Sequence record: NC_005859.1
Length of the DNA stretch: 64,000 nucleotides
Strand: one strand, 5' to 3'
Origin: Escherichia phage T5
The notes beneath the pieces are model-generated. The model saw only the letters and a program-made list of their open reading frames with translations. It searched no databases and was not told where the DNA came from. Both the position numbers and the translations under genes were made by a program. This document shows positions 37,273-37,848 of the stretch, piece after piece. The first letter of the stretch is position 1. Each line of letters starts with the position of its first letter.

Positions 37273-37301
37273 ATTATATTAGAAATTTAGCTTCATAGCA
37301 A
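37273..37301 (-). promoter_or_regulatory. T5-type early promoter
   Basis: minus-strand TTGCTA-N17-TATAAT upstream of tRNA-Ser/Met pair. Confidence 0.65.
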
Positions 37302-37848
37302 GAAAATTTTTCAAGTTTTCGGTAGACATCTCATCCACATCTACAGGGGAAACAAACCCATTTAACTGTCTAGCAAACTTTTCGCCAGCAGGATCATTAT
37401 CCCCAACAGCTACCAATTTAAAAGGTAGTAATTTCAATTGCTTTAATAGCGCTTTTCCTGGAGAAGAACCCAACATTGCCAGGGCTGGATAACCAGCGTT
37501 ATGTAACGCAACTGCCTTAAATACAGATTCAGCAATCAATACTACTTTTTCATCTCCATTGAGAGTTTCTAGTCCCCATACACACTGTGTAGTAGAATAA
37601 GTAAAATATCTAGCTTCAAGGGGGCACTTACCATGACCTTTTGGAGCAGAAGGATTATAAGTCTGATAGCCTCTCAACATCCCAGAGAAGTCATACAAGG
37701 GGACTGTTAGCCATCCTTCCGGGCTTAACCAGCAATGATATTTATCTGTATCAAACCCTCTAGATAAGAGATGTTCTGTTAGTTCATCAACAGTCATATT
37801 AGATTCCTCTCTCAAATTTATAAATATATTATACAGAGAATTTAGCAT
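37279..37848 (-). CDS. Toprim-domain protein
   Basis: 189 aa; conserved Glu (VVLIAESVF) and DxD (AVGDNDPAGE) of the Toprim fold. Confidence 0.6.
   Translation of the reverse strand: MLNSLYNIFINLREESNMTVDELTEHLLSRGFDTDKYHCWLSPEGWLTVPLYDFSGMLRGYQTYNPSAPKGHGKCPLEARYFTYSTTQCVWGLETLNGDEKVVLIAESVFKAVALHNAGYPALAMLGSSPGKALLKQLKLLPFKLVAVGDNDPAGEKFARQLNGFVSPVDVDEMSTENLKNFLAMKLNF

Follow-up and report, generated by a model that had tools for sequence, protein, structure and literature searches.

A small Toprim protein of bacteriophage T5 is very probably the anti-retron protein Rad and has the fold of a DnaG-type primase core

We analyzed a stretch of 64,000 nucleotides from Escherichia phage T5 (NC_005859.1; referred to as the window), in which an open reading frame (ORF) of 189 amino acids is listed at 37279..37848 on the minus strand. 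This ORF is T5p074/ORF071 and is deposited under the label "DNA primase-like protein" or "DNA primase". It is almost certainly rad (retron anti-defense), the orthologue of ORF75 from phage SP15. The gene is already known, and our analysis is a rediscovery of a known gene and not the description of a new system. The protein amounts to a minimal primase catalytic core of the DnaG/T7-gp4 type, from which the zinc-binding and helicase-docking domains have been lost. The explanation that best accounts for the whole, to which we give a probability of about 60%, is that rad is an anti-retron gene, the primase-core product of which binds and then cleaves or destabilizes retron nucleic acid. The points newly described here are the absence of a zinc finger and a helicase-binding domain, the family-wide Toprim residues, the accessory-island context and the coupling to CCA-adding enzymes.

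Identity and gene model of rad

Annotations were taken from AY734508, which is 100% identical to the window over 3.5 kb around rad, and from AY587007 (99.9% identical). Both records give the T5p074 coding sequence as 519 nt encoding 172 amino acids. When the sequence was read around the listed start, the ATG at 37848 was found in the spacer of a promoter, between the -35 sequence TTGCTT (37856-37851) and the -10 sequence TATAAT (37833-37828). This is the early promoter P15a (37828..37856, minus strand, 17-nt spacer), which AY734508 annotates immediately upstream of the rad coding sequence. A Shine-Dalgarno sequence, GAGAGAGGA, is present at 37813-37805, 8 nt upstream of another ATG at 37797. 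Furthermore, Rad homologues are about 172-180 amino acids long and cover 91% of the 189-residue query, and the T5 and SP15 proteins differ at 3 of the 17 residues in the N-terminal extension as compared with 5 of the 172 residues in the body. For these reasons, we judge that the true start of rad is the ATG at 37797 and that the predicted product has 172 amino acids. The corrected coding sequence is 37279..37797 (minus strand, 172 amino acids plus stop), and the 17 codons at 37798..37848 (minus strand) are a spurious N-terminal extension and in fact make up the 5′ leader together with the ribosome-binding site and a part of the promoter. Thus, the 189-amino-acid protein proposed by an earlier reading of this DNA, which was made from the letters alone (the sequence-only reading), does exist as an ORF, but it was given the wrong start codon. 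It should be mentioned that the SP15 annotation and the "189 amino acids" in the preprint by Azam et al. (10.1101/2023.03.15.532788) also use the upstream ATG, which we judge to be inside the promoter. In contrast, the residue numbering for SP15 Rad in the same preprint fits the 172-amino-acid form.

The 172-amino-acid T5 protein is 97.1% identical over its length to SP15 E0157_075 (= ORF75/Rad), with only five substitutions. The gene order of rad, tRNA-Ser and tRNA(CAU) in a tRNA-rich region is common to T5 and SP15 (AP019559), and T5 ORF071 has been equated with Rad (PMC10644984).

The 21-nt promoter core TGTATAATATATTTATAAATT occurs in 13 copies in the window when up to 3 mismatches are allowed (0.04 expected), always upstream of early genes; the sites include 16258, 24456, 37260, 37815, 41567, 43080, 44406, 55749 and 63084. 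One copy (37815-37835) is within the supposed N-terminal extension of rad and another (37260-37280) comes right after the rad stop codon. A part of this core is "repeat c" in AY587007. ORFs can gain spurious N-terminal extensions from this core, as happened at rad.

Published activity of Rad and dispensability of the gene

In the preprint (10.1101/2023.03.15.532788), ORF75 (rad) of the T5-like phage SP15 protects phages from five retrons: deletion mutants are rescued from Ec67, Ec78 and Ec83, and lambda-vir from Ec48 and Se72. The Rad proteins of T5 and of Proteus phage Privateer are likewise active. In vivo, Rad lowers the amounts of multicopy single-stranded DNA (msDNA) as well as of msr-msd RNA, but not of the reverse transcriptase (RT) or effector transcripts. 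The R13E, P33T, I88T, D135H and E156H substitutions each impair Rad, and double mutants abolish the activity (10.1101/2023.03.15.532788). The five wild-type residues are all present at the same numbers in the 172-amino-acid T5 protein. ORF75 was confirmed as the determinant against retrons Eco2 and Eco7 in the peer-reviewed version of this preprint, which defers the function of ORF75 and states that the mechanism could not be determined (PMC11555353, Nat Commun 2024). A later mechanistic paper on phage Rad was not found in the literature searched. Given this published record, it is very likely that Rad neutralizes bacterial retron defence.

The rad gene lies inside three deletion classes, namely st0, T5Mos (30661-38625) and the approximately 8-kb deletions of T5n and SP15m. 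The spontaneous deletions of about 8 kb lose rad and the phage stays viable. Thus, rad is an early, dispensable accessory gene in a tRNA-rich region, and the T5 region has been called an anti-defence island (10.1101/2023.03.15.532788).

Toprim site and primase-type fold of Rad

The protein consists of two parts, a DnaG-type catalytic-core N-subdomain (residues 1-83; 37549..37797, minus strand) and a Toprim domain (residues 84-166; 37300..37548, minus strand). The key Toprim residues, all encoded on the minus strand, are E90 (37530-37528), D133 and D135 (37401-37393) and D153/D155/E156 (37341-37330). Toprim_2 (PF13155) was the sole Pfam match, at 24.3 bits against a cut-off of 22.1, and PF01751 (Toprim) was below its cut-off (17.9 vs 23.1 bits). 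Among 40 homologues from the wider family, R13, E90 and D135 do not vary, and conservation at D133 and D153 is 90% or higher. HMMER aligned E90 with E265 of Escherichia coli DnaG and D133/D135 with D309/D311. Thus, the Toprim Glu and DxD signature noticed in the sequence-only reading was borne out by a Toprim_2 score above cut-off and by the match of E90, D133 and D135 to acidic residues of DnaG, and the protein is, as supposed, small and stand-alone, with the acidic site of its Toprim domain intact. However, the claim that it has no primase partner domain was mistaken, because the N-terminal half is itself the N-subdomain of a DnaG-type primase catalytic core.

A search of Protein Data Bank (PDB) sequences with the single Rad sequence gave only chance matches, for example to xylanases (E>0.3), and the same search with a family profile found only the Toprim segment of DnaG (E about 2e-3). 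Therefore, structure prediction was needed. The AlphaFold model, built from 40 homologues, is confident, with a predicted local distance difference test score of 93.7. In the structure comparison, the top matches over nearly the whole of Rad were all RNA-polymerase domains (RPDs) of the DnaG/gp4 type. Thus, Rad has the RPD fold of a DnaG-type primase, that is, the N-subdomain plus Toprim. The profile-profile alignment by hhalign with E. coli DnaG aligned motifs II-V with a probability of 94%, and PHROG 849 ("DNA primase") was matched with E 1e-61, only over positions 143-337 of the 435-position profile. The N-subdomain contains the segment HLLSRGFD (with R13), the strands LTVPLY and LRGYQTY (motif II-like) and the segment RYFTYS...WGLET (motif III-like). 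In a register set by eye, R13 of HLLSRGFD would correspond to R146 in YLEKRGLS of DnaG and to R84 in LTARGIS of T7 gp4, and RYFTYS...WGLET may correspond to KYLNSPET...YGLYE of DnaG. R/K63-Y64 is plausibly equivalent to K229-Y230 of DnaG (the KY of KYLNS), with an ambiguous register for motif II. Because alignment of the N-subdomain with T7 gp4 by hidden Markov models failed (HMMER score about 0; hhalign probability 2%), the link of this subdomain to T7 gp4 is drawn from the structure comparison.

The primases compared with Rad were the DnaG-type RPDs from Aquifex (2au3), Bacillus subtilis (5guj) and E. coli (1dd9/3b39), together with T7 gp4 (1nui), Twinkle (7t8b) and T4 gp61 (8dvf). Rad shares with the DnaG RPD the acidic residues of Toprim motifs IV-VI and appears to share the YLxxRG-like, motif II-like and motif III-like segments. 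In contrast to DnaG-type primases, Rad is about half the size of a bacterial RPD, is 17-24% identical to these proteins and possesses no zinc-binding, helicase-binding or helicase domain; nor is its gene in a replisome operon, and it is dispensable, with a reported phenotype of anti-defence and not of priming. Pfam gave no Zn_ribbon_DnaG match, and the protein begins at the RPD with only three Cys residues, none of which is conserved. No helicase-interaction domain is present, as Rad ends about 15 residues past the Toprim domain, and Pfam DNAG_N gave no match to Rad. The replicative primase of T5 (AY587007, 70228-71118, outside the window) has a Zn ribbon, DNAG_N and Toprim and is encoded beside a DnaB-like helicase. 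Its likeness to Rad is confined to Toprim. We considered whether Rad is a recent duplicate or fragment of this primase and rejected the idea, because the two are 24% identical over 72 residues, belong to different PHROGs (849 vs 47) and differ in architecture.

RNase M5 is a Toprim ribonuclease that matures 5S rRNA, and the sequence-only reading had named RNase M5-type maturases among small Toprim proteins. It had also called for a search for the closest Toprim subfamily. By structure, the DnaG core is the closest, and RNase M5 (6tg6, 6z2b, 6tpq), like the small Toprim protein 2i5r, aligns over about 87-105 residues that correspond to the Toprim half of Rad only. Moreover, the DnaG N-subdomain is missing from RNase M5, which carries a C-terminal RNA/uL18-binding domain of its own, whereas Rad has no such C-terminal domain and does not match RNase M5 over the whole protein. 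Thus, Rad is closer to primases than to the RNase M5 family. A weak match covering both subdomains (Rad residues 23-148) was obtained with the short, DnaG-like "DNA primase-like protein" MG010 of Mycoplasma (NCBIfam TIGR00646), which is a cellular protein; the score was 19 bits, with the cut-off at 260, and Rad is therefore not a member of this family.

Toprim chemistry is also found in phage-host conflict, in the defence proteins PARIS AriB, the OLD/retron-Eco8 effector, the retron-Eco2 RT-Toprim protein and the PADLOC family RTasDnaG-like; AriB and retron Eco2 have been described as Toprim nucleases. RTasDnaG-like matches the Toprim domain of Rad with E 9e-7, over about 60 residues only. These defence nucleases act as effectors on the host side, with an ATPase or RT as partner. 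In contrast, Rad is phage-side and stand-alone and carries a primase N-subdomain. Neither Rad nor its neighbours contain an ATPase domain, as judged from Pfam and the ORF annotation, whereas the OLD and AriB types combine Toprim with an ABC/AAA ATPase domain or partner.

Distribution and genomic contexts of the Rad family

An exhaustive profile search detected 1287 relatives of Rad, 250 of them at E<=1e-30, and most are stand-alone proteins of about 170-200 amino acids. Among annotated phages, the family is present in T5-like phages, Guernseyvirinae and jumbo phages of Erwinia, Dickeya and Klebsiella, and also in Proteus, Cronobacter, Pseudomonas and Vibrio phages. In jumbo phages of 255-300 kb, the homologue is matched in two pieces, annotated as two "hypothetical proteins" (for example, MZ443778 15923-16406; homologues H63-H70). 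These may be split, frameshifted or insertion-bearing genes.

To survey genomic contexts, we grouped 54 metagenomic loci other than T5 into 27 lineages at 80% identity; these lineages are not phylogenetically independent and counts are given without a statistic. A same-strand tRNA gene was found within 1 kb of the homologue in seven lineages and a tRNA gene within 10 kb in ten, and the remaining 17 of the 27 have none within 10 kb. Therefore, an obligatory link to tRNA genes was rejected: the association is recurrent and not defining. The Pfam tally of 109 neighbouring proteins comprised Metallophos (six), NAMPT (four), several HNH endonucleases and two each of Nudix, CCA-adding enzyme, Band 7, cytidylyltransferase and ATP-dependent ligase. 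No recurring replisome genes were seen in this tally. Thus, the Rad family sits in accessory islands and not in replisome modules. NAMPT together with Nudix/NMNAT enzymes are counter-defence genes with which phages reconstitute NAD+, and the NAMPT and Nudix neighbours would fit an anti-defence island.

Several homologues are fused to other domains. Fusions with a CCA-adding enzyme occur in both domain orders (P0072, P0079 and P0158), and the 597-amino-acid fusion P0158 is identical on three contigs from different samples; a gene-call artefact is therefore unlikely. The other partners are Arr-like ADP-ribosyltransferase (P0062, P0083 and, by eye, P0063), a Mom-like domain (P0071 and P0156), HAD phosphatase (P0069), the zinc-finger domain DUF3268 at the N-terminus (P0077), and GNAT, cytidylyltransferase and ParB_N domains. 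A CCA-adding enzyme gene also adjoins the Rad homologue in the cultured Vibrio phage F99 and is within 2 kb of it at two metagenomic loci (L045 and L052). A module of about 50 amino acids is common to the C-terminal parts of the fusions P0069, P0071 and P0154, and it is also present just downstream of Rad homologues on two large phage contigs (L045:10553-10738 and L052:10412-10882).

Kagunavirus Golestan encodes a 48%-identical homologue, gp32, and has no tRNA genes and a separate "replicative helicase-primase", gp50. In the region 24388-26324 of NC_042084 (L089/L090), the gp32 gene overlaps by 4 nt the stop of the upstream SNF2-like helicase gene gp33 and stands at the end of the replication/recombination operon, unlike the context in T5. 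A role of the homologue as the replicative primase of small siphoviruses was considered and rejected, because Golestan has gp50 and the adjacent helicase is SNF2-like and not DnaB-like.

Neighbourhood of rad in T5

Immediately downstream of rad, after a gap of 20 nt, is a pair of tRNA genes (37089..37258, minus strand). The first, tRNA-Ser(GCU) at 37170-37258, was detected by both ARAGORN and Rfam (60.5 bits). The second, a tRNA with a CAU anticodon at 37089-37163, was detected by Rfam (38.2 bits) and missed by ARAGORN; it is annotated as tRNA-Ile2 in AY734508 and as tRNA-Met in AY587007. In AY587007, the coordinates of these two tRNAs appear to be offset by about 67 nt from those given by ARAGORN, Rfam and AY734508. 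On the upstream side, the next tRNA genes come only after 3 kb and are found at 40.8 and 41.4 kb. The description of rad as embedded among tRNA genes is accurate, therefore, for its downstream side only. The tRNA neighbourhood reflects the tRNA-rich accessory and anti-defence region of T5.

The next promoter, at 37273..37301 (minus strand; TTGCTA-17-TATAAT, 10/12 matches in the promoter scan), has a second annotation in AY734508, as "P15c". Overlapping with the end of rad, it drives the tRNAs located downstream and an HNH endonuclease gene. The latter (36379-37062, minus strand), which comes next after rad and the two tRNAs on the downstream side, encodes a 227-amino-acid HNH homing endonuclease with a LuxR/Fis-type helix-turn-helix and is annotated as F-TflIV (hegA) in AJ604530 and as HNH endonuclease in AY734508. 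HNH endonucleases recur beside Rad homologues in other lineages. The remaining neighbours of T5 rad are small ORFs. Two small ORFs, at 35983-36189 (minus strand, 68 amino acids) and 35617-35892 (minus strand, 91 amino acids), are 92.6% and 96.7% identical to SP15 ORF72 and ORF71, respectively. An ORF pair from the SP15 fragment is reported to neutralize retron Ec83, and it is given as ORF71+72 in the text and as ORF72+73 in the figure legend (10.1101/2023.03.15.532788). Farther along, tRNA-Tyr(GUA) (35340-35427, minus strand) is a T5 tRNA reported to cancel retron Eco7, and tRNA-Lys(UUU) (32162-32239, minus strand) is a T5 tRNA reported to cancel PARIS. Therefore, rad sits in a documented counter-defence region.

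Upstream of rad, a divergent operon on the plus strand encodes a Gly/Ala/Gln-rich protein of 341 amino acids (38004-39029) and a Gln-rich low-complexity protein of 138 amino acids (39051-39467). AY587007 labels the latter "cAMP-dependent protein kinase catalytic subunit", which appears to be a mis-annotation. The two ORFs are within the block ORF071-075 that was lost in the sequenced BF23 stock (PMC10644984). Beyond them, T5p078 (39791-40738, minus strand) encodes a Band 7/SPFH membrane protein and lies beside a major single-strand nick site and a bidirectional terminator. Two of the 27 lineages also have Band_7 genes close to the Rad homologue.

Discussion

We propose the following mechanism for Rad. 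The component shared by all retrons, which may be the msr-msd non-coding RNA (ncRNA) or the RT-bound RNA/DNA, would be bound in the primase-like groove for nucleic acids, to which R13, the invariant residue of the YLxxRG-like motif, belongs. The acidic metal site of the Toprim domain (E90, D133, D135 and D153-E156) would then cleave or destabilize the bound nucleic acid, and the retron would thereby lose the ability to mount a response. We infer direct binding and Toprim-catalyzed cleavage from the fold and the conserved residues. An RNA-directed Toprim activity is plausible: RNase M5 is a precedent for RNA cleavage by a Toprim domain. It is also the leading published idea, as the preprint sees retron msr-msd ncRNA lowered by Rad, and in this respect the suggestion of an RNA substrate in the sequence-only reading agrees with the literature. 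For direct nuclease action of Rad on the ncRNA, taken by itself, our confidence falls somewhat short of even odds.

Several points weigh against this mechanism. The mechanistic data are in a preprint only, and an in vitro nuclease assay on Rad was not found in the literature searched. D135H, in a predicted metal ligand, was only partly or mildly defective under over-expression (10.1101/2023.03.15.532788), which is odd for a strictly catalytic mechanism. The RT-msDNA of Retron-Eco7 is the antitoxin, and cleavage of the msDNA by the T5 flap endonuclease frees the toxin (PMC12640716); therefore, plain loss of msDNA should activate Eco7 and not block it. Finally, the top-ranked characterized matches to the whole fold are polymerases or their relatives, with no nucleases among them.

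A rival proposal is a non-catalytic role, in which Rad holds the retron ncRNA or msDNA (single-stranded DNA or an RNA-DNA hybrid) in its primase-type template groove. Bound in this way, Rad may block reverse transcription and assembly and leave the RNA to host RNases, or it may hide the msDNA from those phage nucleases by which the retron is triggered. The slight reduction of activity by D135H alone is consistent with this idea, as are the retention of the whole DnaG template-binding N-subdomain and the importance of the invariant R13. Moreover, because the Eco7 trigger is msDNA cleavage, protection of msDNA would be a logical counter-measure. However, the full Toprim acidic set is kept across hundreds of divergent homologues, which points to selection for metal-dependent chemistry, and the preprint finds less msDNA and not stabilized msDNA. 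We consider such a shield rather unlikely.

The fold itself raises the question of whether Rad is a primase-like nucleotidyl transferase without a zinc finger, which adds ribonucleotides on or opposite msDNA or ncRNA or makes short oligoribonucleotides. Such an enzyme may spoil the retron sensor, or it may be an auxiliary primase, as the database annotation says. All of the best near-full-length structural matches are RPDs of the DnaG/gp4 type, PHROG 849 "DNA primase" is matched with E 1e-61, the motif II-like and III-like segments align with DnaG (including, plausibly, R/K63-Y64 with the KY of KYLNS), and one family member, P0077, does carry an N-terminal zinc-finger domain (DUF3268). Nevertheless, Rad has neither a zinc-binding domain nor a helicase-interaction domain, gives no DNAG_N match, and at some basic positions of DnaG and T7 gp4 is not clearly conserved, the alignment there being ambiguous. 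Furthermore, T5 already has a complete primase beside a DnaB-like helicase, which is 24% identical to Rad over Toprim alone, and rad can be deleted and is outside the replication module. We therefore regard a transferase activity as improbable.

The proximity of rad to tRNA genes had suggested a role in the processing of tRNA precursors. Rad would then be an RNase M5-like maturase for phage tRNA precursors, or an enzyme of tRNA-end repair, with the anti-retron effect as a side activity. In addition to the T5 tRNAs that begin 20 nt downstream and the same-strand tRNAs within 1 kb in 7 of 27 other lineages, the independent fusions to CCA-adding enzymes in both orders and the nearby CCA-adding enzyme genes of phage F99, L045 and L052 are in line with such a role. 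These fusions keep a connection to tRNA ends alive as a minority reading. The other fusion partners (Arr-like, Mom-like, GNAT, HAD and ParB_N) fit multi-domain anti-defence proteins equally well, however, and 17 of the 27 lineages have no tRNA within 10 kb. The phenotype that has been shown is neutralization of retrons by Rad expressed alone from a plasmid. Phages that have lost rad by the deletions of about 8 kb, and that retain other phage tRNAs, are viable, Golestan has a homologue and no tRNA genes, and the fold is that of the DnaG core and not of RNase M5. Accordingly, tRNA precursors appear a still less probable substrate, and an RNase M5-type assignment was not borne out.

The least credible proposals are that Rad is a site-specific DNA nickase behind the genomic nicks of T5, for which a major single-strand interruption annotated about 2 kb away and the nicking of DNA by Toprim domains of topoisomerases and OLD nucleases (which are among the structural matches) might speak, although no specific link between Rad and nick sites was found and nothing in our analysis supports a DNA-nicking role, or that it is a functionless, decaying fragment of a primase gene, which is ruled out by the strong conservation of a full-length stand-alone family, the promoter and ribosome-binding site of its own and the reported anti-retron activity, and Rad is not a recent paralogue of the primase of T5.

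To return to the proposed binding and cleavage of retron nucleic acid, this mechanism may be one case of a wider use of the fold. It is possible, though not probable, that in the Rad family a DnaG polymerase core has been adapted to work on the ends or junctions of small structured RNAs, with the retron ncRNA as only one substrate among others. If this is true, a genuine biochemical partnership would lie behind the recurrent, independent fusion and adjacency to CCA-adding enzymes and the location near tRNA arrays. Rad may trim or remodel RNA-DNA junctions, or tRNA 3′ ends that are damaged, before CCA is added again or, alternatively, may itself add nucleotides. In either case, the primase fold would serve phage counter-defence in an enzymatic role that is new, and this could resolve the paradox that loss of msDNA is expected to trigger retron Eco7.

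As far as the searched literature shows, Rad is the only broad-spectrum protein inhibitor of retrons reported, and its chemistry has so far been absent from the peer-reviewed literature. Our analysis corrects the widespread "DNA primase" labels in databases and the start codon in several annotations. In addition, three points sharpen the experiments on Rad: a complete primase core without a zinc finger, a family-wide metal site and a repeated coupling to CCA-adding enzymes.

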